From an uncultured bacterium (GTDB lineage: Bacteria; Bacteroidota; Bacteroidia; Sphingobacteriales; Sphingobacteriaceae): 64,000 bases of DNA. Of this stretch, positions 26,454 to 52,265 are shown piece by piece (the first letter of the stretch is position 1; the number at the start of each line of letters is the position of its first letter). The stretch is from positions 2,028-66,027 of the forward strand of contig CAIMAP010000056.1 in NCBI GenBank assembly GCA_903838995.1. The letters are read 5' to 3'. A model generated the notes under the pieces. The model was not told where the DNA came from and ran no database searches. It saw only the letters and a program-made list of their open reading frames with translations. The translations under genes and the position numbers were made by a program.

Positions 26454-26479
26454 CAATCCTTTTTCACTATCTTAGTTTT

Positions 26480-30225: not shown

Positions 30226-31482
30226 TTAGGTTTTCTGCTTCTTCTTTTTTGCCGCTGGAAATAATACATTATTTAAGATAAGTCTATATCCTGGTGAATT
30301 GGGATGTAAGCTTAAATCGGTAGGAGGGTCGCTCACTAAATGTTGGTAATCTTCGGGGTCGTGGCCTCCGTAAAATGTCCAAGTACCTTTGCCTATTTCT
30401 CCATGAATATATCTTACTTCTCCTGCTATACTAGTTTCACCTAATACGAGTACATCTGGCTTCACTAAGCTTTTTTTAAATGCGGTAGTTTGACCCATAA
30501 ATCCTTTGATCACTTTTTCGTGATTCTGAGTAAGCATGCTTGGAACAGGATCCCATTTGGCAGAAAAATCAAATAAACTAAAGTAGTCGTTTTGCTCTGT
30601 TAGATTTCGATTATTAGTATTATCAATATCCGAAAATTCGTAGTTATAAGGATTGTTATCTAGTTTGAAATTTTTAAATGCAAATGTTTGTTGAAAATTT
30701 AATTTGGCCTGCGCATTTGGATCTGCATTATCTCCATCAAACATCGACTCGCAAATGTCTATACCTGCCGCAGCTAAAGCAATATCATAGCTGTCTGTAC
30801 CAGAACACATGGCAAATAAAAATCCGCCACCAATAGTGAAATTTTTAATGGCAGTTGCAACAGCGAGTTTTAATTCGGAAACTTTTTTAAATCCAAGTTT
30901 TGCCGCAGTTTGCTCATTTTGTTGAACATCGTTTTGGTACCAAGCTGCATTTCGATAGGCAGCATAAAATCGTCCATATTGTCCGGTAAAATCTTCATGA
31001 TGCAAATGAAGCCAATCGTATTTCGGAAGCATTCCTTTGATTACTTCTTCATCGTATATCAAATCGTATGGAATTTCGGCATAAGTTAAAACCATGGTAA
31101 CAGCGTCGTCCCAGGGTAATTTATTTTTAGGGGAATACACCGCCATTTTTGGAGCCTTATCTAATTTTACGGCATCCATATTTGTTTCGGGCACGGCAAT
31201 CTCTGCTAAAATTGCACTGGCTTGTACGTCGGCAATAAGATCGTAAGAAACATTTCTGATACGACATTCAGCTTCAATACTTTGGGCGTAGGGGATTAAA
31301 AAACTGCCACCTTTATAATTCAGTAGCCACCACATCGACACATCTTGCTTGAGTACCCAATAAGCGACGCCATAAGCTTTCAAATGATTGCTTTGTTTGT
31401 CATCCATTGGAATTAGTATAGATGTTGCCCTACCTATTGTAACGCAGCCTATTAAGAATAGTAGTAGAATTGTTTTTTTCAT
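30226..31482 (-). CDS. Secreted protein with a class-I glutamine-amidotransferase-like fold signature, function unknown
   Basis: Signal peptide '[19 protein letters not shown]' and nucleophile-elbow-like '[13 protein letters not shown]'. I recall this family being annotated as asparagine synthetase B in Bacteroidota, which may be wrong. Confidence 0.35.
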
Positions 31483-38746: not shown

Positions 38747-39754
38747 ATGCAGCAAATTAATAAAGAAGCTAAGATTGCCGTAATTGGTGGTGGAAGTTGG
38801 GCTACAGCCTTAGTAAAGATTCTTTGCGATAACCAAGCAGATGTAACCTGGTGGATGAGAAATGAAGAGGCGGTTACACACATTCAAGCTTTTGGTAGAA
38901 ATCCTCATTATTTATCATCGGCAGAAATAAGCATTTCGAAAGAGCGAGTAAGAACAGATTTAAAGGCCACCATCGCTGCTTCAGATATAATAATTTTAGC
39001 AGTTCCAGCTGCTTTTTTACATACAAGTTTATCTTCATTAAGCCCAGCAGATTTTGCTGGAAAATTTATTTGTAGTGCAATAAAAGGGATTGTACCAGAA
39101 TTTAATTTAATCATCGGAGAATACTTTAATAATTATTTTAAATTACCATTAGCACAAGTCTTAGTTATAAGCGGGCCTTGTCATGCAGAGGAAGTGGCCT
39201 TAGAGAAATTGTCTTATTTAACAATTTCTTGTTTACAGCAGAATCATACGGATGCATTTGCAGCTATTTTAAATAATCGATATATCCGTACCGTTACCAG
39301 TGACGATATTTATGGAACAGAATACGGAGCAGTGCTTAAAAATATTTATGCAATCGCAGCAGGTATTTTTCATGGTTTAGGCTATGGCGATAATTTTCAA
39401 TCGGTATTAATTTCTAATGCCATTAGAGAAATGGAACGTTTTCTTGCAGCCGTTCATCCAATCAATAGAGATATCAAAGAATCGGCTTATTTAGGAGATT
39501 TATTAGTAACGGCCTATTCTCAATTTTCGAGAAACAGAACCTTTGGTAATATGGTGGGGAAGGGATATTCTGTAAAATCTGCCCAATTTGAAATGGGTAT
39601 GATCGCAGAGGGCTATTATGCTGTTAAATGTATTCACGAAATCAATCGACAATATAAAGTGGAGATGCCTATCTGTAGGGCCGTTTTTGCAGTTTTATAT
39701 GAAAATATTTCTCCATTAATAGAAATGAAATTGCTAACGGAGCAATTAAATTAA
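38747..39754 (+). CDS. gpsA: NAD(P)H-dependent glycerol-3-phosphate dehydrogenase
   Basis: 'IAVIGGGSWATAL' Rossmann motif and 'GPCHAEEVA'; 335 aa. Confidence 0.93.
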   Translation: MQQINKEAKIAVIGGGSWATALVKILCDNQADVTWWMRNEEAVTHIQAFGRNPHYLSSAEISISKERVRTDLKATIAASDIIILAVPAAFLHTSLSSLSPADFAGKFICSAIKGIVPEFNLIIGEYFNNYFKLPLAQVLVISGPCHAEEVALEKLSYLTISCLQQNHTDAFAAILNNRYIRTVTSDDIYGTEYGAVLKNIYAIAAGIFHGLGYGDNFQSVLISNAIREMERFLAAVHPINRDIKESAYLGDLLVTAYSQFSRNRTFGNMVGKGYSVKSAQFEMGMIAEGYYAVKCIHEINRQYKVEMPICRAVFAVLYENISPLIEMKLLTEQLN

Positions 39755-39861
39755 AAATATTTTCTCTTTTAGCTAAATTCCTAATTTACAATTAGTTAAA
39801 ATTCATTTTATTTTCAAAATGAACATCCTGTCAAATTTGCGTTAAGTCTGCGGCTTTCGGC

Positions 39862-39869
39862 TATTTTTG
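39862..39869 (+). promoter_or_regulatory. Candidate -7 box TAttTTTG for the 39.9-52.1 kb surface locus
   Basis: Matches TAnnTTTG 54 nt upstream of the 39924 ATG, in a 169-nt spacer. Confidence 0.35.
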
Positions 39870-39923
39870 CCTTGCAAAATGTATATTTATAGGTACATTT
39901 AAAATCTGATTTATAGGAATAAA

Positions 39924-41225
39924 ATGAAAAAAGATTTTTTGTTTAAAACACTTTATTTGACAGGGTTATTCCTTGTGTTCATGAATGTTCAATCATTCGC
40001 GCAAGACACCATTAGGGTGATGCAATATAATCTTCTTCGTTATGGCGAATCAAATCAGCCACCTAGTACAAAAAACCCTTTACTTTCGACCATCATCAAT
40101 TATGTCAAACCTGATATATTTGGTTGTAACGAAATTTCTGCTACTGCAGATTATGCGCAAAACATTTTAACTGGGGCCCTTAATATTAATGGGGAAACCA
40201 AATGGAAAAGAGCGAAACTTTCTAAGGCTGGTGCAGATGCATCTTTATCCAATACGCTATTTTATAATTCAAATAAGTTTGAACTTATTTCTCAAGATAC
40301 CGTTTCTAAAGTGCAAAGAGAAATTACGGCATTCAATTTATTTTATAAAGATTCTAATCTTGTTAAAACAAAAGATACTATTTTCTTTACGGTACTTGTT
40401 TTACATTTAAAGGCTAGTAATGGTTCTGCAGAAGCAGCGACCAGAGCGGCTGAAACCCAACAGGTATCTAGGTATATGAAGAAATTTACCAAGCCTAAAA
40501 ATGTTTTGATTATGGGAGATTATAATATTTATACCCATACCGAATTGGCCTATCAAAATTTAATTGCGGATACTAATTTAATGGGAAGATTTTATGATCC
40601 ACTAAATAAACCAGGTGCTTGGAATAACAATGGAAGTTTTTCTTCTATTCATACGCAGTCAACTCATAGTGCAACAGGTGGAAGCTTTTCTGGCGGTGGC
40701 ATGGATGATCGATTTGATATTATGTTAGCAACTAAATCGATAATTTCAGATTCTTTGAAAGTTCGCATCTTACCGAATACTTATATTCCTATTGGTAATG
40801 ATGGCATGCATTTTAATTTAGCCTTAACGGATTTACCAGCAAACACTTCGGTGCCTTCTGACGTTTTAGGATCCTTGTATAATATGTCGGATCATTTACC
40901 CATAAGGGCAGATTTTGTTTTTACGCCTTCAAAGCCTGCAGTACAAGGGCTTTCCTTACAGGCAGTTCAATTTTCGCAACAAATTCAAGTAGTCAACCCC
41001 GTAAAAAATAATTTTGAAATTCACTTTAGTGCAAACTTGTTGAATCAAATAATTAATTTAAAAATATATAATCAATCCGGGAATTTAATTGAAAGTCAAA
41101 AAATTGCAACTGCGAATTCTGATTTTCAAATCACACCTACAGCATCATTACCTGAAGGGATTTATTTATTGAGATTTGAAAACAAAGCAGGTTTGTCGGT
41201 CATTAAAAAAATAGCAAAGTATTAA
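39924..41225 (+). CDS. Secreted endonuclease/exonuclease/phosphatase (EEP) family hydrolase with a T9SS C-terminal sorting domain
   Basis: Signal peptide. EEP motifs are 'IRVMQYNL', 'FGCNE', 'IMGDYNI', 'DRFDIML' and 'SDHLPIRADF'. The CTD reads 'IKIYNQSGNLI...EGIYLLRFENKAGLSVIKKIAKY'. Confidence 0.85.
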   Translation: MKKDFLFKTLYLTGLFLVFMNVQSFAQDTIRVMQYNLLRYGESNQPPSTKNPLLSTIINYVKPDIFGCNEISATADYAQNILTGALNINGETKWKRAKLSKAGADASLSNTLFYNSNKFELISQDTVSKVQREITAFNLFYKDSNLVKTKDTIFFTVLVLHLKASNGSAEAATRAAETQQVSRYMKKFTKPKNVLIMGDYNIYTHTELAYQNLIADTNLMGRFYDPLNKPGAWNNNGSFSSIHTQSTHSATGGSFSGGGMDDRFDIMLATKSIISDSLKVRILPNTYIPIGNDGMHFNLALTDLPANTSVPSDVLGSLYNMSDHLPIRADFVFTPSKPAVQGLSLQAVQFSQQIQVVNPVKNNFEIHFSANLLNQIINLKIYNQSGNLIESQKIATANSDFQITPTASLPEGIYLLRFENKAGLSVIKKIAKY

Positions 41226-41226
41226 G

Positions 41227-43341
41227 ATGTTTTTTAAGCAATATTTGAATCGTTATTTTGGGTTATTGGCTGCCTGCATTATTCCGCTAACAGGATTTTC
41301 GCAAGCTTCATTCGATGAAAAATTAACGACAGCAGGAAATATTAGAATGACCATTAATAACCTCGGAATGATTGGAAATGCATTCAAAGGTTCTTATAAT
41401 ATTTTAGCATATCCTTCGTGTGAGTTTCCGGCTAATTCTGGTATAGAACATTTATTCCAGGGTGGTTTATGGATTGGTGCAATGATCAATGGTTCTCAAG
41501 TTGCTGTAAGTTCGGGAGCTACAGATGATGCCGCAGGTTATACAACGGGCAAAAGCGGTTTTGAGTTTACCGCGGCACTGGGTGCTAAAATAAAAGAAAG
41601 ATCTAGCTTAATAGATAATCCATTATACGAAACCAATGCTGTTTCGCATCAAGATTTTCTTTCCGATTTTACAGATAAAAATATTGTTGTTCCTGGAACA
41701 AACATTGCGATTAGCAATCATAATTTTCCACTTGGCGCCGATGTGCATTTTGAAGCCTATAATTATAATTTTAATTTTGCCAATTATTTTGTCATTCTAA
41801 ATTATACCATTACCAATAACAGTGCGACAAATTGGGATAGTGTTTTTATTGGTTATTGGAAAGATGGAGTGGTTAGAAATGTAAATGTTACTCCACCTGG
41901 GGGAAGTGCTTTTTACAATAAAGGCGGAAATGGCTTTTTAGATTCTTTAGATATTGCTTACGAGTTTGACGCTAACGGCGACCCAGGATTTACCGAAACC
42001 TATGTTGGCTTAAAGTATCTTGGATCGATAGACCCTGCAGGCTTTGCACATCCATTATTGAGGCCAAACATGAAAATCAATTATAATTCATGGCAGTTTC
42101 AAAACTCTGCCGATCCATTATATTTTTCACCATCAGACGATAATCAGAAGTATGGTAAAATGACGGCGGGTTTAAATCATCGTGCCGATTGGCAAACCGT
42201 TATTCGTCCTTCCTTAAGTCAGCCGAATAATAGATCGCATTTAATGGCCGTTGGTCCATTCGTTCAAATTAAACCAGGGGAAACTATTAATATTTCTTTT
42301 GCATTAGTTTGCGCTAAAAAGAACGAAGATGGAAAGCCAAACACGGCAGATAATGATTTTCAAAAACAAATTTTAGTACAAAACTCAAAGTTTGCACAAA
42401 CGGCATATAATGGCGAAGACATTAATTTTAATGGCTTATTAGATGCGGGTGAAGATAGAGATGGTAATGGGGTAATTACTCGTTTTGTTTTACCTGCGCC
42501 TCCAGTAATTCCAAGAATGAAAGTGATTGCAACTGAAAATAAAATGGAAATTTATTGGACTAAAAATGCGGAGGCATCGGTCGATCCAATTTCTAAGAAA
42601 AAAGATTTCGAAGGTTATCGATTATATAAAACGGCTTTGGGTTTTGATGTAAAGCAAACGCAAGACATTGCCAAGGCTTTAAAATTAGTGGCAGAATTTG
42701 ATCGCGCAGATAATACTTTGTTTAGCAATACAGGATTGCAATCTATTACATTGCCCGACTCTGTTACTTTTGGCGAGTTAGGCCCATTAGATGAGCCAAT
42801 CTATTATCATTATAAATACACTTTTGATAATTTACAAAATGGATGGCAACATGCCATTGCCTTAACTGCATTTGACCAAGGAGATAAAGTAAATAATTTA
42901 GAATCATTAGAATCTAGTACGCTACCAAATATTAAAAGAGTATTTCCAGGAATGCCGGCAAATGATGGCTTTGAAAATGGAGAACCATTTGTATATCCTA
43001 ATCCTTATTATGGATTAGCCGCTTGGGAAGGTTTAAGTACCAATCCCGAAAGTAAAAAAATATATTTCGCAAACCTACCCGCAAATTGCGTCGTAAAAAT
43101 TTTTACTTCTTCTGGAGATTTAGTAGATCAGTTTACGCATAACGAAAGTTATAATGGTTCGGATATTAAATGGAATAATATATACGCAGATCCAAGCAAG
43201 AATCAGTTTTCAGGTGGAGAACATGCTTGGGATTTATTATCTGCCGATAATCAAATAATAGCTAGAGGAATTTATATGTTTTCTGTAAAAGACAATAAAA
43301 CCGGTAAAGTTGTTAACGGGAAATTCGCATTAATTAAATAA
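41227..43341 (+). CDS. Secreted 704-aa protein of unknown function with a T9SS-CTD/FlgD-Ig-like C-terminus
   Basis: Signal peptide 'LTGFSQA|S' and 'EHLFQGGLWIGAMINGSQV'. Has a Ca-binding-like loop 'DAGEDRDGNGVI' and no HExxH. C-terminus is 'FVYPNPYYG...VVKIFTSSGDLV...ARGIYMFSV...GKFALIK'. Starts 1 nt after the EEP stop codon. Confidence 0.6.
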   Translation: MFFKQYLNRYFGLLAACIIPLTGFSQASFDEKLTTAGNIRMTINNLGMIGNAFKGSYNILAYPSCEFPANSGIEHLFQGGLWIGAMINGSQVAVSSGATDDAAGYTTGKSGFEFTAALGAKIKERSSLIDNPLYETNAVSHQDFLSDFTDKNIVVPGTNIAISNHNFPLGADVHFEAYNYNFNFANYFVILNYTITNNSATNWDSVFIGYWKDGVVRNVNVTPPGGSAFYNKGGNGFLDSLDIAYEFDANGDPGFTETYVGLKYLGSIDPAGFAHPLLRPNMKINYNSWQFQNSADPLYFSPSDDNQKYGKMTAGLNHRADWQTVIRPSLSQPNNRSHLMAVGPFVQIKPGETINISFALVCAKKNEDGKPNTADNDFQKQILVQNSKFAQTAYNGEDINFNGLLDAGEDRDGNGVITRFVLPAPPVIPRMKVIATENKMEIYWTKNAEASVDPISKKKDFEGYRLYKTALGFDVKQTQDIAKALKLVAEFDRADNTLFSNTGLQSITLPDSVTFGELGPLDEPIYYHYKYTFDNLQNGWQHAIALTAFDQGDKVNNLESLESSTLPNIKRVFPGMPANDGFENGEPFVYPNPYYGLAAWEGLSTNPESKKIYFANLPANCVVKIFTSSGDLVDQFTHNESYNGSDIKWNNIYADPSKNQFSGGEHAWDLLSADNQIIARGIYMFSVKDNKTGKVVNGKFALIK

Positions 43342-43375
43342 GAAGTATAAAATTTAAAAAAAAAATAAAAAAACC

Positions 43376-45508
43376 ATGAACAAAAAATTACTCACAATGG
43401 CCATATTGTTGTCTGCTGCATTTACAGCACAAGCACAATATCCTTTAAAAACAATTCAAGCAGTACAAACTGTTTCTCAGCAAGATTTAGCAGCAGGTAT
43501 TGAGGCTTCTTCTATTCCATCTACCGATACCATTAGAATCCGTGGTGTCGTAATAATGGATGCTGGACTTTCTACTTTAGTAGGCGGAAAACAAATTTGG
43601 ATTCAAGCAAATAATGGTTCATCATTTTCTGGTATTGATGTATATCAAAACTTTCCTGGCAGTACGGTAACCGGTGATGCAGGAACTGGCATTCTTTCTT
43701 TAGTTGCGGGTGACTCAGTAGAAATAACTGGTAATGTGTTAGAATATCAAGGGGAAACAGAATTTGTGCCAGTGAATACTACACCTGCTACACCTATTCA
43801 AATTTTAGGCGGCGGAATTACAGTTAAATCAAAATTAATTACTGCAGCAGAATTAAATGACGCCAACAGAAATAATATTTTAACAACTGGCGAACAATAC
43901 GAAGGCATGTATGTAGAGATTCGCAACTTAACTGTTTCTACCGTTGATTATTTTTCGAATGGTACGCGTGTAAGTTTCAATATTGTAGATGCTGCTGGAA
44001 ATAAAATAAATGTTTCTGACAGATTTAAAGCTTTTAAATTACCTGCAGCGGGTGGAACTTTTGTGCCACCAAATGTTGGTGATGTTTTAACAAGCATTAA
44101 AGGAGTTGTTGTTCATTCATTAAACAATCGTGGTTATGAATTGCATGTTTTTGATGCATCTCAAATTGTGTATGGTGCAGCAGCGCCAACTATTTCACAA
44201 ATTACGCGTTCTATTAAAGTACCAACAAGTACAGATGCAATTACCGTAACAGCAAATATTACCGATAAAGACGGTGTTAACTCTGCAGATTTATATTATG
44301 CAGTTGGTGTAAATAGCACATCTTATACATCGGTTGCAATGACTGCAAACGGAAACAGCTATTCGGCTGTGATACCTGCACAAGCAGATGGTTCATTTAT
44401 TAAATATTATATTTCTGCAAAAGATAATTCAACTGGACAATTGGTAAGTCGTATTCCAAATGTGCCTACAGAAGATCCTAAATTTTATGTAGTGCGTAAT
44501 GCAGGAATGGGAATTTATGATGTACAATATACTCCCTTTAAATCTGGAAATTCTGGATTCGCAGGACAAGAAGTTACCGTAAGTGGTATTGTTACTTCAT
44601 CGGCAAACGATTTAGGTTATATATTTATTCAACAAGAAAACCAATTGAATTGGGCTGGTGTAATGTGTATTGGAAGCACTACACTTGCTACCTTAGCTAT
44701 TGGCGATAAAGTTACCGTTACCGGAACTGTTCGCGAAAATTTTGGTTTTACACGTATCGAAGCCATTACCTCTGTTGCTAAAAATGGAACGGGTACCATT
44801 ACGCCAATTGTATTGGTAGCAGATTCATTCCGTAAATATAGTTTCACAGGTACAGAACCATACGAAGGTATGTTGGTGAAATTTGTAGGGAACTCAGGAT
44901 CGACTTTAAAAGTAGTTAATTCAAATGCAGATGATCCTAGTAATTTTGCAGAATACCGTGTAGGTCCAGATACAACAGATGCTGGTGCTGGTTGCAGAAT
45001 AATTGCAGGTAGAGTAACTTCATCAGTTTATTCTTCGTTAAATGTTTCATATGTAAATGATACCATTTGGGCTACCATATCAGGTATTATGAAAGTGGCT
45101 CCAATTGCAGTTCAAAAAGGAGATGCAATGACATCTGTTACAGGTATCATGGATTATTCTTTTAGTAATTGTAAATTAATGCCTCGTAACAATGCAGATT
45201 TTGAAAATTATGTAAGGTTAAATGTTGGCGTAAATAGCAACGCAATTAATTTAGGAAAAGTGGTTGCTTATCCAAATCCAACTAGCAACCAAATTAATTT
45301 TGATTATATCTTACCTGCAAACGCAGCAAATTGCGCAATTGTAGTATACGACTTATTAGGTCAAGAAGTGGCAAGCACTAACATTAACACTTTAAGTGGT
45401 AGTGCAAGTATTGCAACTAGCAACTTAGCACAAGGAACTTATCTCTATTCAATTACTTCAAGTAATTTAGGACAATTGAATAACGGTAGATTTGTAGTGG
45501 TAAAATAA
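43376..45508 (+). CDS. Secreted 710-aa protein with two OB-fold-like modules (as in ExeM/NucH extracellular nucleases), an Ig-like domain and a T9SS CTD
   Basis: Signal peptide. Modules are 'IRIRGVVIMD...IWIQANNG..GIDVY...GDSVEITGNVLEYQGETEF' and 'VTVSGIVTSS...IFIQQEN...GDKVTVTGTVRENFGFTRIE'. 'YEGMYVEI' and 'YEGMLVKF' also occur. CTD is 'AYPNPTSNQINF...GTYLYSI...GRFVVVK'. Confidence 0.6.
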   Translation: MNKKLLTMAILLSAAFTAQAQYPLKTIQAVQTVSQQDLAAGIEASSIPSTDTIRIRGVVIMDAGLSTLVGGKQIWIQANNGSSFSGIDVYQNFPGSTVTGDAGTGILSLVAGDSVEITGNVLEYQGETEFVPVNTTPATPIQILGGGITVKSKLITAAELNDANRNNILTTGEQYEGMYVEIRNLTVSTVDYFSNGTRVSFNIVDAAGNKINVSDRFKAFKLPAAGGTFVPPNVGDVLTSIKGVVVHSLNNRGYELHVFDASQIVYGAAAPTISQITRSIKVPTSTDAITVTANITDKDGVNSADLYYAVGVNSTSYTSVAMTANGNSYSAVIPAQADGSFIKYYISAKDNSTGQLVSRIPNVPTEDPKFYVVRNAGMGIYDVQYTPFKSGNSGFAGQEVTVSGIVTSSANDLGYIFIQQENQLNWAGVMCIGSTTLATLAIGDKVTVTGTVRENFGFTRIEAITSVAKNGTGTITPIVLVADSFRKYSFTGTEPYEGMLVKFVGNSGSTLKVVNSNADDPSNFAEYRVGPDTTDAGAGCRIIAGRVTSSVYSSLNVSYVNDTIWATISGIMKVAPIAVQKGDAMTSVTGIMDYSFSNCKLMPRNNADFENYVRLNVGVNSNAINLGKVVAYPNPTSNQINFDYILPANAANCAIVVYDLLGQEVASTNINTLSGSASIATSNLAQGTYLYSITSSNLGQLNNGRFVVVK

Positions 45509-45515
45509 TTTAAAC

Positions 45516-45551
45516 AGCTGCTTGTGTTGAAAAATGCAAGCAGCTTTTTTA
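45516..45551 (+). terminator. Hairpin plus T tract inside the surface locus (terminator or attenuator)
   Basis: 9-bp stem AGCTGCTTG / CAAGCAGCT with a 12-nt loop, followed by TTTTTTATTT. Lies 8 nt after the 45508 stop codon. Confidence 0.6.
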
Positions 45552-45563
45552 TTTCAAATTCTA

Positions 45564-47051
45564 ATGAAACAAACACGCATTTTATTTTTTCTGTTAGTAA
45601 CAACCATTTTCTCTGCTTGTATAAAAGAAGACGAATTAAAGTTGAATACGAACCCAAACACGAATATATTTTTAGAAAAAATAGATCGTGTAGGCGAAAA
45701 TAGATTAAATACAAATGTAACCATGCATTGGTCGGCCGATGACCGAGACGGCTATATTATAGGATATGAAGTATCTTTAGATAACATCACTTGGTCTTTT
45801 ACCACCAAACAAGACAGCGTTTTTAGGTTTAGTATTTTAAATGGGGATACAACAGACATTAACTTGTATGTTCGTGCAATTGACAACGATGGCAATAAAG
45901 ATTTAACGCCTGCTTATTTAAAAATTCCAATAAAAAACACGATTCCTACCGTTGCATTTGATGACAATTTGATTAAATGCGATTCGGTATATTCAGTTTT
46001 TTCTTTGCTTTTTTCTGCAAACGATTTAGATGGTAACGAAACAATAGATTCAATTTATTTAAAAATAAACAATGGAAATTGGTTTGCACTTTCTAATCAA
46101 TCAACCTTTGTTACCTTAGTACCCAATAATCCAACAATTGCAGGTAACGACCAAGCAAAAGTTTATTTAGGTTACGATGCCATTAAATTAAACAAGCAGA
46201 TGAATGGCTTGTTAGTAGATGGTGCCAATCAAGTATACCTCAAAGCCCGCGATTTTTCTGGTGCAGAGAGTGTCATAGATACCTTAGCGCCATTCTTTTT
46301 AAGAAGAAAAACTTCCGACCTATTGGTCTTAGATGCCTATAATATTGCAACAACTCCTAATGCCGATGTGGTTTATAAAGAAGTATTGCAATCGGTTTAT
46401 GGCGCTGTAGACTATTATGATTTTTTTAGACAAAACAAAGCTTATTTTCCATCTATTTGGAAGCCAACATTTAGCTTGTTTTTGAATTTGTACGATAAGG
46501 TGTTTTGGTATTCTGATAATATTGCTAGTAATAACAATGCCATGCTATTAGAAAGTGGAGCATCCGCAATTCAAAATTATTTAAATGCAGATGGCAAATT
46601 ATTTGTTTGTTCTGATTTTGCAAACAACGCTTACCCATTGGCTTTTTCAAAAACATCACCCATTTTTCAGTTTTCTCCAGCAGATAGTTTTCAAACTTTT
46701 TTTGCGGCTAATCAAAAAGCAAGTATCCCTAAAGATTCGCTGTTACTGCCCAATACGGCTGCAGGCGCAGGTTACCCAACTTTGCTTGCCAGTTCATTTG
46801 CAGACGCAGTTGATCCCTTTTTTGAAAAATCAAATGCGACGGTTATTTATACTGCAAATACTAAAAGAAATTCGGGTGTGACGAATACTAAAGTGGTGAT
46901 GGCCAAAACGCAAAACGCAAATGGTAAAACCAACCAAGTATTTTGCTCAATAGATTTGTTTAAAATGCAAGGCGATGCCAATGCAAATGGACAACAGGAT
47001 GAATTAAAACAATTGTTTCAAAAGATATTTTTAGACGAATTTAATTGGTAA
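45564..47051 (+). CDS. Lipoprotein of unknown function (two Ig-like 'W..D.DG' modules plus a C-terminal alpha/beta-like region)
   Basis: Lipobox 'TIFSAC|IKE' if translation starts at the 45564 ATG. The track start at 45534 sits in the hairpin loop. 'MHWSADDRDGYIIGYEVSLDNITW', 'VRAIDNDGNKD' and 'FSANDLDGNETIDSIYLKINNGNW'. Confidence 0.65.
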   Translation: MKQTRILFFLLVTTIFSACIKEDELKLNTNPNTNIFLEKIDRVGENRLNTNVTMHWSADDRDGYIIGYEVSLDNITWSFTTKQDSVFRFSILNGDTTDINLYVRAIDNDGNKDLTPAYLKIPIKNTIPTVAFDDNLIKCDSVYSVFSLLFSANDLDGNETIDSIYLKINNGNWFALSNQSTFVTLVPNNPTIAGNDQAKVYLGYDAIKLNKQMNGLLVDGANQVYLKARDFSGAESVIDTLAPFFLRRKTSDLLVLDAYNIATTPNADVVYKEVLQSVYGAVDYYDFFRQNKAYFPSIWKPTFSLFLNLYDKVFWYSDNIASNNNAMLLESGASAIQNYLNADGKLFVCSDFANNAYPLAFSKTSPIFQFSPADSFQTFFAANQKASIPKDSLLLPNTAAGAGYPTLLASSFADAVDPFFEKSNATVIYTANTKRNSGVTNTKVVMAKTQNANGKTNQVFCSIDLFKMQGDANANGQQDELKQLFQKIFLDEFNW

Positions 47052-49873
47052 TGAAAAAAAGCATTCTTTATATATTGCTATTTATTTTTTCTTTTGTAAC
47101 ATTTGCTTCTGCGCAAATTCAGACGGGTGTATTAAAAGGTAAAGTAGTTGATAGAAAAACAAAAGAGCCTATTATAGGAGCAACGGTAACCATTGTGGGC
47201 ACTTACTTTGGGGTGAGTACCGATATCAACGGTAATTTTCAAATCAATGCCATTAAACCAGGAGAGTATACTGTGAAAGCAATTTATTTAGGCTATAAAG
47301 AATTGCAGTATAACGGGGTGAAAATAAATGCGACTGTTCCTACACAATTAAATTTATCCTTGACAGAAGTTACCGCAGAAATTGGTGCGGTAGAAGTATT
47401 AGGCCAAAGAACCATTGTCGATTTAGAATCTGGCAAATCGAGTTCGAAAGTTACTTCAGATGACATCAAAGACATGAGTGTGAAAGATGTGCAGTCTATT
47501 GTTGCCAATCAAGCTGGGGTGAGTCAAAATCCAGATGGCTTGCAGATAAGAGGTGGCCGAGTTTATGAAACACAATATTTAGTAGATGGAATTAATGCGC
47601 AAGATCCATTGGCAGGAACAGGCTTTGGCGTCGACATTGCATCCAATGCAGTAAATGATATCGAAGTAATAACCGGTGGTGTTGGAGCAGAATATGGCGA
47701 AGGCACATCGGGCGTGGTACTTACCAGAATTAGAGAAGGTGGAGACAAAGTAAAGTTTGGTGGAAGTTATTATCGAGATAATTTAGGTATTAATGAATCG
47801 AGTAATTGGAATACGGATATGCTCAGCCTTAATTTTGGATCTCCTGTACCATTTACCAAAAAGAAACTTACTTTTTTTAGTAGCGCCAACATGGAATTGA
47901 CGGATGAGTTTTTTAAAAATCCAGCTAATCAATTGCATAGTTCTATGCTTCGTAAAAATGATTCTATATGGGCACCACGCGAAGACAATAAATGGTCGAG
48001 TACTTTCAAGCTAACTTATAATATTGCACCAGGTAAAAAATTATCTATATCAAATCAATCAAGTTTAAATATCAATCAAAATACAAGATCGCTGCAAGTA
48101 GTAGGAAACAATGCTATTGTAACGCCTGGGTATCAATATTTATTTAGCTTGAATATGGATAATGCGGCAACTTATACGCATAAATCAAACTTGTTAATTA
48201 TTCAATATTTAAATTTATTCTCTAAAGAATTATCGATGGATGTTTCTTTTGCAAGACTCTTTACCAATTTAAGAGCCGATGCAAATGGTCGTCCATTCAG
48301 ACCCTCTACCATTGATCAAATTTTTGATCCTGCTTCGATTGTTTCGGATCCTGCCACTTTATTTAATCCTGGCGATTCGGTAATTTATGTAAATCCTGGA
48401 CCAGGATTATATAATAATGGTGGAGTGTCTACCCTATGGCACGATCACTATGCGCAAGAAAATACCTTCAAAGTAAAATTTAATTATACACCTAACAAAG
48501 CCAATTTTATTAGTTTTGGTTTAGAGCATAAAGAGCAAGAGTATCAGTGGGTAGACGTTACCAGACCTTGGATTGGTGCACCAATAATTATTGATGATAC
48601 TACTACCACGGCTTCGTCGAGTATTGGACAATCCAACGATATTTGGAAAGTAAATCCAGCAACAGGCGGTTTGTTTTTTCAAGATGAATTACGTTACAAG
48701 GGAATCATTGTCAATGCAGGTATACGATTAAATTATTGGATGCCAGGTAAATTTGCAGATCAAGCAGTGGCAGATCCTAACGCACCAGTAATTGCAGCCA
48801 TTAGAGAATCGTATATAAAAAATAGCACCGAAATATTTGGACGCAGAACAAAATTTAGGTTATTACCAAAACTTAGAATTTCTTTTCCTGTTTCTGAAAA
48901 TAATGTATTGTATTTTAATTACGGACACCTTAGCAGATTACCACATCCTCGCTTTGTCTATGCAGGTTTAGATCCTGTTTATCAAAACCGATCGTTCTTA
49001 GCCAACTTGGGTAATCCAGATTTAAATCCCGAAGTAACTGTTTCTTACGAAGTGGGAATAAAAACACAAGTAACCGCTAATTTTGCTATTACTGCTACTG
49101 CATTTTATAACGATAAATTTGATTATATCGTGAGTAGAAGAATTATTGTAAAAGACCAAACCGGTCGATTTGTCGAAAAGAATTTTAATATCAATCAAGA
49201 CTATGCAAGAATTCGTGGCTTCGAATTAACCTTGAATAGAAGAGTGCAAAAATATTTGAGTACAACCTTTAGTGCGGCCTATCAAATAGCAACTGGTAAA
49301 TCTAATTCTGCACAAGAATCGCAATTACAAATTTTACAAACAGGTTCGGTATCACCAACGGTAGAGCAGTACTTAGCTTGGGACAGACCCCTTGATTTAA
49401 AATTAATGATTGTATTTAAACCAGACACTTCCTTTCATATTGGACGAATTAATTTTAATAAAGTAAGGGTGTTTTTAAATTCAACTTATAAATCTGGTTT
49501 AAGATATACACCTTATTATCAAAATGGAGTAGAGCCCAATGGCAGACCTATATACGAGCCAGACGAATTGAATCCATTTAGTAAAATAGGTGCTGCTTGG
49601 TGGAATACAGATTTAAAAATCACCAAAGATATTTCCATTAAAAGAGGCCAACAAATTAGTTTGAGTATCGAGTTTAAAAATATTTTTGATAATAAAAATG
49701 CAGCCATTATTAATCCTATAACAGGAAAAGCCTACGAATACGGTGATCCGCTGCCTAATACTTATCGCGATCCAATGTATCCAGATCCACAAGACAACGG
49801 GGTGCCACCATTTAACCCTGCAAGGTATTTAACCCCAAGGCAAGTGTTGGCAGGAATTAGTTGGCAGTTTTAA
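47051..49873 (+). CDS. TonB-dependent outer-membrane transporter with an N-terminal carboxypeptidase-regulatory-like domain (no SusD partner)
   Basis: Signal peptide. 'GKVVDRKTKEPIIGATVTIVGTYFGVSTDINGNFQI..KPGEYTV' is the N-domain. Plug is 'DGLQIRGGRVYETQYLVDGI'. Terminal 'LAGISWQF'. The ATG overlaps the upstream stop codon (TAATG). The track start at 47045 is a TTG codon. Confidence 0.88.
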   Translation: MKKSILYILLFIFSFVTFASAQIQTGVLKGKVVDRKTKEPIIGATVTIVGTYFGVSTDINGNFQINAIKPGEYTVKAIYLGYKELQYNGVKINATVPTQLNLSLTEVTAEIGAVEVLGQRTIVDLESGKSSSKVTSDDIKDMSVKDVQSIVANQAGVSQNPDGLQIRGGRVYETQYLVDGINAQDPLAGTGFGVDIASNAVNDIEVITGGVGAEYGEGTSGVVLTRIREGGDKVKFGGSYYRDNLGINESSNWNTDMLSLNFGSPVPFTKKKLTFFSSANMELTDEFFKNPANQLHSSMLRKNDSIWAPREDNKWSSTFKLTYNIAPGKKLSISNQSSLNINQNTRSLQVVGNNAIVTPGYQYLFSLNMDNAATYTHKSNLLIIQYLNLFSKELSMDVSFARLFTNLRADANGRPFRPSTIDQIFDPASIVSDPATLFNPGDSVIYVNPGPGLYNNGGVSTLWHDHYAQENTFKVKFNYTPNKANFISFGLEHKEQEYQWVDVTRPWIGAPIIIDDTTTTASSSIGQSNDIWKVNPATGGLFFQDELRYKGIIVNAGIRLNYWMPGKFADQAVADPNAPVIAAIRESYIKNSTEIFGRRTKFRLLPKLRISFPVSENNVLYFNYGHLSRLPHPRFVYAGLDPVYQNRSFLANLGNPDLNPEVTVSYEVGIKTQVTANFAITATAFYNDKFDYIVSRRIIVKDQTGRFVEKNFNINQDYARIRGFELTLNRRVQKYLSTTFSAAYQIATGKSNSAQESQLQILQTGSVSPTVEQYLAWDRPLDLKLMIVFKPDTSFHIGRINFNKVRVFLNSTYKSGLRYTPYYQNGVEPNGRPIYEPDELNPFSKIGAAWWNTDLKITKDISIKRGQQISLSIEFKNIFDNKNAAIINPITGKAYEYGDPLPNTYRDPMYPDPQDNGVPPFNPARYLTPRQVLAGISWQF

Positions 49874-49913
49874 TTAAACGCAAATGAATTATTTTATTTA
49901 TAAAAATATTGAA

Positions 49914-50915
49914 ATGAAAAAATACTTAATCATGTTGATGTGTATGATGAGTAGTATGTTGGTGCAGGCGCAATTGATGCCAAATTTAGGTGGTCAAAGA
50001 GCAGGTACTTCGGCATTTAATTTTTTAAAATTAAATTTCAATCCAAGGGCAACGGCTATGGCTGGCGCTAGTGCTGCAATGCCCGGCGATGCCTACGCTG
50101 CAGCTGCAAATCCTGCGGCATTAATTGACATCAAAGAGCTAAGTTTTGCTTTATCTTCTCAACAATATTATGCTGGTGCAAATACCAGTTATTTAGCGGC
50201 AGTGTTGCCAACTAAACATTATAGCGCTTGGGCATTTCAATTGCAAAGTTACCGAACCGATGCCATGGAAAAACGCACCGAATTTCAACCCTATGGAACA
50301 GGCGAATATTTTTATGGACAAAATTTAGCTTTTGGTCTTAGTTACAGTAAAATTCTTTCTGACTATTTTAGTTATGGAATTTCTGCTAAGTATGTATATG
50401 AAGGTATTGATAATTACAGCGCACATACTGGGGTAGTTGATTTAGGATTTTTGTATAAAACAGATTTTAAAGATTTAAAATTTGCCGTATTGCTTTCTAA
50501 TTTTGGCATCAATACAAAAATAGATGGACAAACAAATACTTTAGTTGCTTTCAATAATTCGACAGAAGATATCAACGCTTATGCAGCGCCAACACTATTT
50601 AAAATGGGCGTTTCGCTTGTGCCCTATAAATCTGGCAGAAATCAACTCTTAGTGGCAGCAGAGTTGCAGCATCCAAACGACAATTCAGAAAACATTCGTT
50701 TGGGTTTAGAATATAGTTGGATGGAAATGTTTTTTGTGAGGGCAGGCTACAAGCTAGGATTGAAAGACCAAACCACACCAACATTTGGCGCAGGTATTCG
50801 CAGTCATTTTGGACGCTATCCTTTAAATATAACTTATGCTGCAGATCCACATCCAAACTTGGGATTTGCACAACAAATTGGGGTAGCCATTACATTAACT
50901 AAAGAAACAAGGTAA
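49914..50915 (+). CDS. PorV/PorQ-family outer-membrane beta-barrel protein
   Basis: Signal 'MLVQAQ'. The 'GGQRAGTSAFNFLKLNFNPRATAMAGASAAMPGDAYAAAANPAAL' N-terminal motif is typical of the PorV/PorQ family. Beta-strand periodicity throughout. The ATG at 49914 is preferred. Confidence 0.7.
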   Translation: MKKYLIMLMCMMSSMLVQAQLMPNLGGQRAGTSAFNFLKLNFNPRATAMAGASAAMPGDAYAAAANPAALIDIKELSFALSSQQYYAGANTSYLAAVLPTKHYSAWAFQLQSYRTDAMEKRTEFQPYGTGEYFYGQNLAFGLSYSKILSDYFSYGISAKYVYEGIDNYSAHTGVVDLGFLYKTDFKDLKFAVLLSNFGINTKIDGQTNTLVAFNNSTEDINAYAAPTLFKMGVSLVPYKSGRNQLLVAAELQHPNDNSENIRLGLEYSWMEMFFVRAGYKLGLKDQTTPTFGAGIRSHFGRYPLNITYAADPHPNLGFAQQIGVAITLTKETR

Positions 50916-52117
50916 TGATTCAAGGTATAAAAAAATTATTTATCTTATTTTTTGCAATTGCTTTTTTGGCAAGTTGTGAAAATCCATTTGGTGATAAAAC
51001 TAATTTAAGTTTTATTGATGTACCTAATTACGACGAGCAGCCCATTGCTTTTGTTCCCATTCAACCTGCGTTAAAAGATTTCGATTATCCAAGTGCTGTT
51101 TTTATTGGCTACGACGAGTTGGTATATATTGCAGATCAAGGAAGGTCAATTGTTTATTGCTTCGATCAAAGTGGAAAGAAAATTTCACAATTAAGCATTC
51201 CAGGTTTGAAATCTGTTGCAATGGATAGAAGTCTCAATCTATTGGCACTAGGGTCAATAGACACACTCATCAATGGCAATACATTTAAGTTAGATGCGGT
51301 ATTCAGATATGAGTTAGCTTCATCCGATGGTTATGGATTAGCAAAAGCAAAACTTGTTAAAAGAACAATTCATCCATTTTATTTTAAAACAAGTTTTACT
51401 ACTTCAGATACAGCTACGCATTTTAATGCAATAAGTATCATGGCAGATAATAATTATTACATCACTCGATCGGGGCCATCTAATTCGTCGACGCAAATTG
51501 GTGGGCCAGATGATGCCATACTTGTTTTTAATTCGCGTGATAAATTTGTAACAACTGTTAATGTACAAACAGCACAAGGATTAATGAGCGATTATTTCAA
51601 AAAACCATTTGCCATTACTACACTTGCAAAAGGCCCGCAATCGCCAATTGTAAAGCAAGGCGGCGATTTTATATTTACTTCTGTTAATCCTGGAACAACC
51701 ATCAAAACACAATACATTAGTTTTCTTTCTTCCGAATTTGGTTCGAGCTATTCTTTAAACACGGCGCTTGCAGGACAAGACACTTCTAAAGCAAATGGAT
51801 TTATTTATTCACCTGATAAATTTTCTTCGCCAGTTGGGGTGACCATTGCAGGCGATGGTAGTAATTATATTTTTGTGGCAGATGCGGCCAAAGATTCTGT
51901 TTATTTATTTTCGTTAAATGGATTAGAAGGCATTCAGCCGCCTCCAGGTTATGCAGCAAAAAAATACATTAAAGTTTCTTTTGGAGGCAGTGGATTAGGC
52001 CCTAAACAATTTAACAGACCAGTTGCGGTAGCATATCACAATCAAATTCTATATGTGTGCGATGCAGGCAATGGCAGGGTTACTCGATTCAAATTAAGTA
52101 CCGAATTTATCAATTAA
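50915..52117 (+). CDS. NHL-repeat beta-propeller lipoprotein
   Basis: Lipobox 'AFLASC|ENP'. NHL-like repeats are 'PSAVFIGYDELVYIADQGRSIVYCFDQSG', 'PVGVTIAGDGSNYIFVADAAKDSVYLFSLNG' and 'NRPVAVAYHNQILYVCDAGNGRVTRFK'. The ATG overlaps the upstream stop codon. Confidence 0.7.
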   Translation: MIQGIKKLFILFFAIAFLASCENPFGDKTNLSFIDVPNYDEQPIAFVPIQPALKDFDYPSAVFIGYDELVYIADQGRSIVYCFDQSGKKISQLSIPGLKSVAMDRSLNLLALGSIDTLINGNTFKLDAVFRYELASSDGYGLAKAKLVKRTIHPFYFKTSFTTSDTATHFNAISIMADNNYYITRSGPSNSSTQIGGPDDAILVFNSRDKFVTTVNVQTAQGLMSDYFKKPFAITTLAKGPQSPIVKQGGDFIFTSVNPGTTIKTQYISFLSSEFGSSYSLNTALAGQDTSKANGFIYSPDKFSSPVGVTIAGDGSNYIFVADAAKDSVYLFSLNGLEGIQPPPGYAAKKYIKVSFGGSGLGPKQFNRPVAVAYHNQILYVCDAGNGRVTRFKLSTEFIN

Positions 52118-52171: not shown

Positions 52172-52215
52172 AAAACATAAGTTGCTAAACTATTGCTACT
52201 TGCCAAATAAAAGCC

Positions 52216-52223
52216 TATCTTTG
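52216..52223 (+). promoter_or_regulatory. Candidate -7 box TAtcTTTG for the DEAD-box helicase gene
   Basis: Exact TAnnTTTG match 43 nt upstream of the 52266 ATG. Confidence 0.4.
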
Positions 52224-52265
52224 CGGCGGCTTTCGCAAGAGGCGATCGCTTTAAACTATATTTTA

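Follow-up and report, generated by a model that had tools for sequence, protein, structure and literature searches.

Seven genes between gpsA and a DEAD-box helicase gene

Within the window (the whole 64,000-nt stretch of DNA that was analysed), seven genes, which we refer to as A to G, lie on the + strand at 39924-52117 with housekeeping genes on either side, gpsA and a DEAD-box helicase gene forming the flanks (Table 1). Open reading frames and sequence agree with an earlier, sequence-only reading of this DNA on the seven same-strand genes, on intergenic junctions of 1, 34, 55, -1, 40 and -1 nt, which follow from the gene starts chosen, and on the TAATG overlaps at 47051 (D stop, E start) and 50915 (F and G), both read directly in the sequence; the start used for D is invariant in its family. 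Domain searches likewise upheld the statement that the locus lacks SusD, glycoside hydrolase, regulator and mobile-element genes.

Table 1. Genes and signals of the A-G locus, in window coordinates
Feature	Position	Strand	Description
TATTTTTG	39862..39869	+	candidate -7 promoter box of Bacteroidota type; lies in the 169 nt between gpsA and A
A	39924..41225	+	ORF, 433 aa; putative secreted EEP-fold phosphodiesterase; type A T9SS CTD at ~residues 358-432
B	41227..43341	+	ORF, 704 aa; putative T9SS cargo; N-terminal beta-supersandwich of ~400 aa, acidic loop, FN3, CTD-like domain ~585-704
C	43376..45508	+	ORF, 710 aa; putative T9SS cargo; OB-fold/DUF5689-like modules ~22-270 and ~380-625, Ig-like domain ~285-375, type A CTD 632-697
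C-D hairpin	45516..45551	+	terminator-like; 13 bp stem, 4-nt loop, T-run
D	45564..47051	+	ORF 45534-47051, start taken at Met11 (45564), 495 aa; lipoprotein; two FN3/Ig domains and a C-terminal class I glutamine-amidotransferase-like (flavodoxin-like) domain
E	47051..49873	+	ORF opens at TTG 47045, ATG 47051 gives 940 aa; SusD-less TonB-dependent transporter (TBDT); CarboxypepD_reg N-terminal extension, Plug, barrel
F	49914..50915	+	ORF opens at 49884, signal-peptide Met at 49914; 14-strand-type outer-membrane barrel, PorV/PorQ family (NF033709)
G	50915..52117	+	ORF, 400 aa; NHL-repeat beta-propeller lipoprotein; lipobox, NHL profile, TAATG overlap with F

The TAnnTTTG box noted by the sequence-only reading is present upstream of A, but with 110 occurrences across the window, where 101 would be expected, the motif is at chance frequency, so it is the position of the box that speaks for it. 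The weak hairpin placed after G did not hold up, being no better than shuffled sequences (z -0.96). A different hairpin, with a T-run and absent from that reading, lies between C and D: at -19.9 kcal/mol (z -4.2) it was equalled in stability by 0 of 200 shuffles, it is retained in loci L003 and L004 through a compensatory G-C to C-G change, and L014 retains it with a different stem. This conserved, terminator-like hairpin divides A-B-C from D-E-F-G.

A conserved gene order and a PorV/PorQ-family barrel

The A-G grouping is a conserved surface locus; its genes are not together by accident. Of 41 F-anchored metagenome contigs, each including 10 kb upstream of F, 31 have the full A-B-C-D-E-F-G series in the same order, and 38 have either A-G or B-G in that order; A is present in 31 of these 41 loci and missing in 20 of 80 D-anchored loci. 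The A-G order was found in Sphingobacteriales, Flavobacteriales, Cytophagales and unclassified Bacteroidia, the flanking genes changing from one to the next, all seven genes occur in MAGs of Cytophagales and other Bacteroidia, many species genomes carry the cluster between unrelated housekeeping flanks, and the gene order is maintained in hundreds of aquatic Bacteroidota. Cultured bacteria with the locus include Acidiluteibacter ferrifornacis S-15 and Flexibacter flexilis, and OZ257246.1 and NZ_WWNE01 are among the carrier records. In distant variants (B ~29% identical, 63% G+C), B, C, D, E and F are clustered in a changed order, for example E, F, B, D and C together on a 63% G+C contig; S8 or M6 peptidases with CTDs are encoded beside B homologues in such variants, and rpiB and deoC lie immediately upstream in one of them (L167). 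B-C-D frequently occurs with no E-F-G within 10 kb.

F matches NF033709 at 150.6 bits (cut-off 90), the profile of its family aligns with PorV of F. johnsoniae (6h3i_F) over the N-terminal half (E 1.2e-13), and NCBI labels its homologues 'PorV/PorQ family protein'. Its tightest genomic partners are G, which follows it in 66/69 loci and stands with it as a lone pair in L134, and E (52/54 loci). G has the lipobox LASC followed by E-N-P-F-G-D-K, and its profile matches NHL propellers (TRIM71 NHL, E 2e-19). We consider it extremely improbable that F is the genome's PorQ (or PorV) orthologue with its neighbours there by chance: PorQ is indeed the best specific model and the loci examined show no second PorV-family gene, but F falls below the cut-offs of PorQ (92.5 vs 220 bits), PorV (56.6 vs 250) and PorV2 (44.7 vs 325), its adjacency to E and G holds across orders and also in the 63% G+C variant, and the cluster stays intact while flanking genes vary by lineage. 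These scores place F in a subfamily of its own, apart from PorV, PorQ and PorV2. The sequence-only reading, which had proposed a self-contained surface locus, named three findings that would speak against it: homologues that are not syntenic elsewhere, an F that is the core PorV/PorQ orthologue, and a match to a characterised utilisation system. As the order recurs in other genomes and across orders despite differing flanks, and F is not an orthologue by the NCBIfam cut-offs, the first two were not found.

Cargo proteins, lipoprotein D and transporter

The CTD of A scores 37.4 bits against PF18962 (cut-off 27). Weak EEP-nuclease matches are to MnuA (44 bits, cut-off 185) and to the EEP part of ExeM/NucH; the match to xth (exonuclease III, 16 bits) is also below cut-off. 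Across the A family MnuA is matched by 6/7 members and ExeM/NucH by 4/7, and the EEP catalytic residues N36, E70, D199, N201, D323 and H324 are invariant, and A is probably a nuclease. By profile comparison, C carries in tandem two copies of the OB-fold/DUF5689-like module found at the start of ExeM/NucH nucleases: module 1 aligns with module 2 (hhalign 98.7%, E 3.5e-16), and all 13 C members match the ExeM/NucH N-terminal region (best E 1.3e-19), below the family cut-off. The C homologue in L027 covers DUF5689 positions 22-216 of 217 at 23.3 bits (cut-off 28.6), 7/13 C members give weak OB-fold Pfam matches, residues 390-489 of C are matched by the N-terminus of PDB 9sf8/9sf9, residues 293-378 match the PPAD Ig domain, and the CTD scores 42 bits. 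C, which persists in the 63% G+C variant, is a predicted nucleic-acid binder. All nuclease and DNA-binding matches of the locus fall below family cut-offs; ExeM/NucH, whose cut-off of 300 bits neither A nor C reaches, is matched at 61.5 and 23 bits. The domain searches bear out the assignments put forward from sequence alone, the EEP matches of A being weak.

Among the seven genes, B shows the highest conservation. None of 14 members has a Pfam family; B carries the acidic loop GEDxNxNGxLDxGEDxDxDG, and the only Foldseek matches of its AF2 model (pLDDT 78.8) are N-terminal sandwich domains from enzymes of GH94, GH116 and GH63 (TM ~0.25), the modelled N-domain having a fold typical of carbohydrate-active enzymes. 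An identity with PorZ was rejected (21 bits vs a cut-off of 260, fold differs). The C-terminal 120 aa match the C-family CTD profile (hhalign probability 84%, E 7.7e-6). In A and C the CTD is the least conserved part (mean pairwise identity 23% vs 46% for the rest of A, 28% vs 44% for the remainder of C) and looks like a cleaved sorting tag, whereas the CTD-like domain of B is its best-conserved domain (63% vs 54% for its own N-domain). This contrast argues for a possible pairing of B with F, as do a faint match of the B C-terminus to that of PorZ and the precedents of PorZ-PorQ and PorU-PorV. The sequence-only reading would have F anchor the CTD cargos of the locus in general; the tag-like CTDs of A and C speak against this for those two, and the closest genomic ties of F are to G and E, which leaves B as the candidate cargo. 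Dependence on the T9SS is suggested by the canonical CTDs on A and C, and on all of the other-architecture proteins that share the N-domain of B.

D has the lipobox FSAC, followed by I-K-E-D-E (family consensus C-(K/D)-K-(E/G)-(D/E)-E), and is probably surface-exposed. Searches of Pfam and PDB gave no sequence matches, Foldseek matched its AF2 model (pLDDT 82.6) to FN3 pairs and gamma-glutamyl peptidase/Pdx2 folds, and its glutamine-amidotransferase-like domain lacks a conserved Cys-His triad; D is a candidate lid of E. E, read earlier as a TBDT without SusD and found to be so, has CarbopepD_reg_2 (65 bits), Plug (41.5 bits) and barrel, and scores only 65 bits against the SusC/RagA model (cut-off 368). 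Conserved in its family (mean identity 57%) are the plug motifs DGLQIRGxRVYET and DPLAGT and the C-terminal Phe, and a TonB-box-like xVxVxG is present.

The locus might alternatively have no part in import and encode a structural, surface-layer, adhesion or accessory T9SS/outer-membrane biogenesis complex, in which E and F would anchor B, C, D and G to the membrane. Such a complex would fit the very high conservation (between orders ~50% identity for B, ~54% for E), the housekeeping neighbours with no regulator, and BamG-type FadL/PorV-like structural barrels, which hold surface lipoproteins, as BamG holds BamH. It is nonetheless quite improbable: the retained plug motifs and TonB-box-like segment of E are of the kind usual in active transporters, the active site of the enzyme A is intact, and occurrence is patchy. 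Pattern matching, which sets a lower bound, found at least 262 D relatives in 185,579 species genomes, and many T9SS-bearing lineages are without the locus, so it belongs to neither the core T9SS nor BAM.

A possible system for DNA capture, cleavage and import

The best explanation takes A to G as a single cell-surface apparatus, conserved among Bacteroidota that have the T9SS. What is observed is the gene content, the domain homologies, the invariance of catalytic residues, the patterns of conservation and the synteny; the substrate, the surface exposure, every contact between the proteins and what B does are what we infer. A secreted DNA-binding protein and a nuclease are most likely set beside a dedicated TonB-dependent importer, and we tentatively favour, with slightly less than even confidence, a T9SS-displayed system for DNA capture, cleavage and import. 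A, B and C would cross the inner membrane via Sec and the outer membrane via the T9SS, the two modules of C would bind DNA or RNA, A would cut the bound nucleic acid, and fragments would pass into the periplasm through E, with D as its lid or binding partner. F and G would form an accessory outer-membrane pair, probably holding B via its conserved, presumably uncleaved CTD-like domain, as PorQ holds PorZ.

The ExeM/NucH-type duplicated modules of C, the DUF5689 match in L027, the catalytic residues of A, the role of DUF5689 proteins as TBDT partners elsewhere and rpiB/deoC upstream in L167 all point towards nucleic acid. As to a characterised system, the logic of a nuclease, an OB/DUF5689 binder and a SusD-less CarboxypepD_reg TBDT is known, but the full composition, with T9SS cargos, B, D, F and G, was not found described in the literature. 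The ddbABCDEF DNA-utilisation loci of gut Bacteroidales, experimentally required and with a DUF5689 protein as the TBDT's predicted DNA-binding partner (Sharan et al. 2025, PNAS, PMC12478041), also unite secreted nucleases, a SusD-less TBDT and a DUF5689/OB-like predicted DNA binder in one PUL-like locus without glycoside hydrolases, a likeness by domain type, the DUF5689 match being below cut-off. There, however, DdbD, the binder, is an SPII lipoprotein, as are two of the nucleases, and the DdbD gene adjoins the TBDT gene, whereas C and A are T9SS cargos with CTDs, C is tandemly duplicated, the neighbour of E is D, with another fold, and counterparts of B, D, F and G were not identified in ddb. 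That C is a T9SS cargo not adjacent to E, where DdbD is a lipoprotein, weighs against the DNA reading. ExeM/NucH (NCBIfam NF033681; Shewanella ExeM, PMC6085458) has the N-terminal module that occurs twice in C and the EEP part matched by A in a single polypeptide, whereas the A-G locus splits binding and catalysis into two genes, each with a T9SS CTD.

The Riemerella anatipestifer outer-membrane pair RA0C_RS04915/RS04920 is required for natural transformation (Huang et al. 2021, PMC8459023) and combines a CarboxypepD_reg outer-membrane protein, its extension of the same domain type as in E, with a surface protein that contains DUF5689, and a nuclease is encoded nearby; RS04920 also bears DUF5017, not seen in C. 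A DNA-uptake machine for transformation instead of nutrition would share this logic, and the housekeeping context with no regulator gene, suggesting constitutive expression, would suit it, yet we hold it to be very improbable. No indication of competence was seen at the locus (comEC, dprA and an HhH protein are not in the window or annotated flanks), the DUF5689 match is below cut-off, and the operon opens with the putative nuclease A, which would break down DNA on its way in, although a nuclease is also encoded at the ddb-related locus of Riemerella.

The locus shares with the T9SS attachment-complex pairs PorQ-PorZ and PorV-PorU, and with PorP/SprF, which carry type B cargo, a PorV-family barrel associated with T9SS cargos, here encoded alongside them, and a CTD retained and bound to a PorV-like barrel is described for PorZ-PorQ and PorU-PorV, the conservation of the CTD-like domain of B being as if it were retained. 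F differs in failing the equivalog cut-offs and in its genomic link to a TBDT and an NHL lipoprotein, unreported for PorQ, PorV and SprF. Complexes of a TBDT with a surface lipoprotein are established in Bacteroidota, including BtuB-BtuG with its propeller lipoprotein, and, as in SusCD PULs/utilisomes, E has a SusC-like CarboxypepD_reg extension and lipoprotein genes on either side. Unlike SusCD PULs, the locus has no SusD, CAZymes, hybrid two-component or ECF/anti-sigma regulator, E scores far below SusC/RagA, and the fold of D (two FN3 and a GATase1-like domain) is not among known TBDT lids.

Several observations weigh against the DNA reading: B and E, the two most conserved proteins, carry no nucleic-acid signature, A is absent from many loci, distant variants pair B with S8/M6 peptidases instead, the nuclease and DNA-binding matches are below cut-off, and a search for phosphate or nucleotide regulatory signals found none. 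The frequent separation of B-C-D from E-F-G also weighs against this reading. The dispensability of A, those peptidases, the sub-cut-off matches and the N-domain of B, which resembles those of GH94, GH116 and GH63 enzymes, would also fit a generic T9SS-coupled TonB-dependent utilisation platform, in which B, D, E, F and G form a scaffold, lineage-variable neighbouring enzymes set the substrate (peptides/proteins or a glycan, for example, and not nucleic acid) and the modules of C bind another polymer. We regard this platform as unlikely, since ExeM/NucH-type C is retained even in the 63% G+C variant, the catalytic residues of A are intact, and no glycoside hydrolase, lyase, SusD or peptidase occurs among ~120 Bacteroidia loci examined. 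If the locus is indeed a DNA capture, cleavage and import system, the cluster may explain the use of extracellular DNA by the bacteria that carry it.

Layout and transcription of the locus

ORF reading confirmed the seven same-strand genes A-G where the sequence-only reading had placed them. With family-supported starts for D (Met11), E (ATG) and F (Met), its junctions of 1, 34, 55, −1, 40 and −1 nt were reproduced, and both TAATG overlaps (D-E and F-G) were found by direct reading of the sequence. Its two proposed expression signals fared less well: the TAnnTTTG box upstream of A is present but the motif occurs at chance frequency in the window, and was therefore dropped as promoter evidence, and the hairpin after G (~52150) was no more stable than shuffled sequence and not significant. 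Scans for sigma-70-type promoters and terminators were at shuffle level overall, the sole outlier being a terminator-like hairpin in the C-D gap which is kept in relatives, with a compensatory change in two and a different stem in a third. The D open-reading frame has its first ATG (45534) within this hairpin, which supports Met11 as the probable true start of D. With the hairpin conserved, the genes may be expressed as A-B-C plus D-E-F-G, or by attenuated read-through, instead of as one uniform operon. No riboswitch or RNA leader, a possible ligand clue, was present in the window at gathering thresholds, nor in 39700-40000 at E 1 or better.

Features of the window, with A-G the genes of the surface locus
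Feature	Position	Strand	Description
lpxK	26438-27535
Intervening gene	27519-28334		between lpxK and porin gene
Putative porin	28341-30221		626 aa, full-length Porin_10 (PF14121)
Unmatched gene	30226-31482	−	418 aa, no Pfam match at E 1e-4 or better
A	39924-41225	+	EEP-fold protein, T9SS C-terminal domain (CTD)
B	41227-43341	+	secreted protein, CTD-like end
C	43376-45508	+	duplicated module, CTD
C-D hairpin	45516-45551		13-bp stem then T-run; −19.9 kcal/mol, z −4.2
D	45564-47051	+	lipoprotein
E	47051-49873	+	TonB-dependent transporter (TBDT)
F	49914-50915	+	PorV/PorQ-family barrel
G	50915-52117	+	NHL-repeat lipoprotein
DEAD-box helicase	52182-54203		DEAD, Helicase_C and DbpA domains
Unmatched gene	59228-61333	+	701 aa, no Pfam match at E 1e-4 or better

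Annotation of the locus, its flanks and the window gave no mobile, regulatory, SusD or CAZyme genes, in agreement with the sequence-only reading of the locus. An efflux OEP/HlyD pair and gpsA lie on the 5′ side, and a DEAD-box helicase, DUF4293, truA and an ABC exporter on the 3′ side; the remainder of the window includes dnaK, peptidases, lpxK, a porin and enolase, and base composition is even throughout. Conserved flanking genes were ruled out as functional partners, as all are housekeeping genes and differ from one lineage to another. The helicase itself carries a long C-terminal tail of Gly/Arg/Ser/Tyr-rich repeats (GGGERKSYGGG...), and its listed TTG start is probably too early, with a conserved N-terminus (MNPFEQLG) near 52267. 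The putative porin gene lies just downstream of lpxK.

Conservation and modularity of the gene cluster

The A-G proteins are 93-98% identical to those of two freshwater Sphingobacteriales MAGs (L001 and L002), and the cluster extends far beyond them. A profile search with D found relatives in at least 262 species-representative genomes; among the best 80 of these D-anchored loci, B-C-D-E-F-G recurs in the same order in Sphingobacteriales, unclassified Bacteroidia and several Flavobacteriales families, including the cultured Acidiluteibacter ferrifornacis, with between-order identities of ~50% for B and ~54% for E. An F-anchored search of metagenomes returned at least 574 relatives, and those extending the full 10 kb upstream, 41 loci in all, were ordered A-B-C-D-E-F-G (31), B-C-D-E-F-G (7), D-E-F-G (2) or F-G alone (1). 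Complete seven-gene copies also occur in one Cytophagales MAG and another Bacteroidia MAG. The co-occurrence in order of B, D, E, F and G homologues, which the sequence-only reading had proposed as a check, was thus found from both anchors.

The cluster is modular. A large group of Bacteroidia MAGs has B-C-D without E-F-G within 10 kb, the partial sets B-C-D-E, D-E-F-G and F-G are also seen, and A is absent from many loci. In several Sphingobacteriales relatives (L006, L008, L010-L013, L015, L019, L021) C and D are separated by an additional conserved gene of ~283 aa (e.g. L010:9022-9873), which is absent from the window and has no Pfam match. A B profile search gave 4372 cluster representatives, and homologues at ~29% identity were examined for distant contexts (distant homologues are primed below). 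For example, a related locus on a contig of 63% G+C, L167, is ordered rpiB-deoC-E′-F′-(two small genes, one NHL-like)-B′-D′-C′-S8 peptidase, with C′ confirmed by hhalign (99.6%); on a 41% G+C contig E′ is divergently oriented to B′-C′, and a 52% G+C contig has an NHL protein followed by B′-D′. We do not count G in the deep core, because the 313-aa gene after F′ in L167 is not recognisably G. B, C, D, E and F therefore remain clustered, in varying order, even between very distant relatives, which argues strongly that they function together; A-G very probably constitute a conserved functional surface unit.

Predicted roles of the barrel, the transporter and their partners

The sequence-only reading had described F as a PorV/PorQ-family barrel, E as a SusD-less TBDT with a CarboxypepD_reg-like N-domain, and D and G as lipoproteins, G with NHL repeats; each of these assignments was borne out. 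F scores 150.6 bits against the PorV/PorQ subfamily model (NF033709, cut-off 90), with residues 42-334 covering profile positions 1-322 of 326, and its homologues are named 'PorV/PorQ family protein' by NCBI. It falls short of the equivalogs for PorV (NF033710, 56.6 bits against 250), PorQ (NF033711, 92.5 bits against 220, residues 29-212 only) and PorV2, and the F-family profile matches F. johnsoniae PorV over the N-terminal half only (E 1.2e-13). Scanning 2.6 Mb of related loci revealed no second PorV-family gene. E has a Plug domain (41.5 bits, cut-off 23.9) with conserved motifs, barrel matches to several TBDT models, a plausible xVxVxG segment as TonB box and a CarboxypepD_reg extension, and scores 65.4 bits against the SusC/RagA model (TIGR04056, cut-off 368) over the N-terminal 200 residues only; no SusD-like gene occurs in the window locus or in any related locus examined. 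By these scores F is a family member that is neither PorV nor PorQ, and E is a genuine TBDT but not SusC.

D and E overlap in the window and adjoin in related loci. D has a lipobox Cys followed by K-E-D-E, which resembles the Bacteroidota lipoprotein export signal, and no informative Pfam, NCBIfam or PDB sequence match. Its AF2 model (pLDDT 82.6) combines two FN3/Ig domains with one that is glutamine-amidotransferase-like; we do not call it an amidotransferase, as the GATase1-like fold comes without an invariant Cys or His in the family. G matches one NHL repeat (PF01436, 20.4 bits, cut-off 20), its family profile aligns to solved NHL propellers in 3-4 stretches (E 2e-19), and it has a lipobox. 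In the genomes F is coupled most tightly to G and E: it is paired with G, whose gene overlaps that of F in the window, in 66 of 69 loci, with an isolated F-G pair in the related locus L134, and with E in 52 of 54.

For B, a secreted protein in which the sequence-only reading recognised no catalytic motif, searches gave no useful Pfam, NCBIfam or PDB sequence match (14 homologues with Pfam). The AF2 model (pLDDT 78.8) has an N-terminal beta-supersandwich of ~400 residues and a small sandwich at the C-terminus, with an acidic loop resembling a calcium site and an FN3 domain between them. A fold search with the supersandwich returned, at low TM, non-catalytic N-domains of GH94, GH116 and GH63 enzymes (glycoside hydrolases and phosphorylases) and nothing else, and B is therefore not called a glycosidase. 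The CTD-like end noted earlier was recovered by hhalign of the C-terminal sandwich to the C-family CTD (84%, E 7.7e-6, two insertions); none of the 14 B homologues matches PF18962, and proteins of other architecture with the B N-domain carry canonical CTDs. At 63% mean pairwise identity this CTD-like domain is the best-conserved globular domain of B, the N-domain reaching 54%. B and D are unnamed protein families and new targets for structural study. In the MAG carrying locus L172, the gene for a distant B homologue of 679 aa precedes that for an M6 peptidase of 1179 aa, immune inhibitor A-like and bearing a T9SS CTD (L172:3892-9484), and no TBDT lies nearby, which suggests that members of the B family occur alongside various T9SS hydrolases.

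For PorZ-PorQ and PorU-PorV it has been published that the CTD is retained and bound by a cognate PorV-like barrel. By analogy with these, and given its conserved CTD-like domain and a faint match to the PorZ C-terminus, B is the one plausible stable client of F, which narrows the proposal of the sequence-only reading that F would anchor the locus's own CTD cargos. It does not qualify as PorZ itself (NF052228, 21.2 bits against a cut-off of 260, C-terminal 120 residues only), and its model lacks propellers. A different partnership, in which F would hold G much as the FadL-like BamG holds the lipoprotein BamH, is at least as likely as B being held by F.

Nucleic acid as a candidate substrate

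Of the seven products A and C alone bear a functional signature, and in both it points to nucleic acid. Both qualify as T9SS type A cargo (PF18962/TIGR04183, 37.4 bits for A and 42 for C, cut-off 27), with CTD matches in 6 of 7 A and all 13 C homologues. Their CTDs are the least conserved parts of these proteins (mean pairwise identity 23% for A, 28% for C), as expected for cleaved tags. The EEP fold proposed for A is supported by an invariant catalytic set (N36, E70, D199, N201, D323 and H324 in a seven-sequence alignment) and with sub-cut-off matches to MnuA, ExeM/NucH and exonuclease III in most family members; PF03372 matches the L081 homologue weakly and the window's A not at all at E 0.01 or better. 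A is thus predicted to be an EEP phosphodiesterase whose active site is intact and whose affinities lie with nuclease families.

C contains one module twice, the two copies aligning to each other in hhalign at 98.7%. Of the earlier description of C, the clear CTD and the doubling stood, and OB-fold families gave weak matches in 7 of 13 homologues. All 13 match the N-terminal module of ExeM/NucH (best E 1.3e-19). Neither protein reaches the ExeM/NucH cut-off (NF033681, 300 bits), and the parts are divided between the two genes, C scoring 61.5 bits over profile positions 1-115 (N-terminal module) and A 23.2 bits over 282-449 (EEP), so that both appear to be sub-cut-off fragments of that architecture. 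Two of 13 C homologues match DUF5689 (PF18942) below cut-off (best 23.3 bits against 28.6, positions 22-216 of 217), and the window's C does not at E 0.1 or better; C would be a doubled ExeM/NucH-initial module shading into DUF5689. An Ig-like domain in C resembles that preceding the CTD of PPAD. Beside a solitary D homologue in another locus, a 1438-aa open-reading frame (L031:2379-6692) has four short repeats matching part of the second C module (E 3e-8).

Recent work links DUF5689 proteins to the transport of DNA through the outer membrane of Bacteroidota (PMC12478041, PMC8459023). In B. thetaiotaomicron, ddbABCDEF is required for depletion of exogenous DNA and encodes three nucleases, a SusD-less TBDT (DdbC), a DUF5689 lipoprotein (DdbD) predicted to cap DdbC and resembling the dsDNA-binding p202 domain, and DdbE (PMC12478041); in Riemerella anatipestifer, natural transformation requires a homologous pair, made up of an outer-membrane protein with CarboxypepD_reg and a protein with DUF5689 (PMC8459023). 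The ddb locus and A-G would have three ingredients in common (nuclease, DUF5689-like binder and SusD-less TBDT), delivered as lipoproteins in ddb and by T9SS here. The ddb binder adjoins its TBDT as a lipoprotein, whereas C is a T9SS cargo not adjacent to E; the candidate counterpart of the ddb nucleases, the secreted EEP protein A, has an invariant catalytic set and sub-cut-off nuclease matches and is absent from many loci; and E shares CarboxypepD_reg with Riemerella RA0C_RS04915, a likeness of domain type alone. No independent DUF5689-plus-TBDT locus was present in the 2.6 Mb scanned.

From these ingredients we propose that C, as predicted binder, and A, as predicted nuclease, would be displayed at the surface by T9SS, and that E, partnered by the surface lipoprotein D, would import nucleic-acid fragments. 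The workings of the locus would then resemble those of a DNA-utilisation locus of ddb type joined to a T9SS arrangement with a cognate barrel. We put this DNA reading at a little under an even chance, the substrate assignment resting wholly on sub-cut-off matches and analogy. A single further hint is found in L167, whose TBDT gene is directly preceded, on the same strand, by rpiB and the deoxyribose-phosphate aldolase gene deoC (L167:560-1935); the S8 peptidase downstream in that locus has a FlgD_ig-type CTD.

A wider and more speculative possibility, which we consider rather unlikely, is that these loci represent a widespread and so far unrecognised class of outer-membrane machine coupling T9SS to TonB-dependent import, with a B-C-D-E-F core conserved well beyond Bacteroidia. 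F and G would permanently hold B, by its retained CTD, beside a D-capped E, as a platform recruiting other T9SS cargos (here C and A, peptidases in distant lineages), giving a SusD-independent 'utilisome' built from secreted proteins instead of lipoproteins. A literature search found no paper on the A-G gene combination, in line with the sequence-only reading, which knew of no characterised system of this composition, and informative annotation is missing for four of the seven proteins.

The cluster is carried by Bacteroidia that are abundant in fresh and marine waters, among them those of TARA Oceans and lake metagenomes; many of these carriers apparently have small genomes, and the cluster is among their most conserved outer-membrane loci. 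Dissolved DNA is a major pool of phosphorus and nitrogen, and if the DNA reading is true the locus would provide a concrete route for its turnover by these bacteria, and would extend the newly described DNA transport of the ddb and Riemerella type to T9SS-displayed components. Regardless of substrate, the synteny of a PorV-family barrel with a TBDT and a putative cargo with a conserved CTD-like domain offers a handle on T9SS surface retention, namely how cognate PorV-like barrels keep some cargos at the surface.
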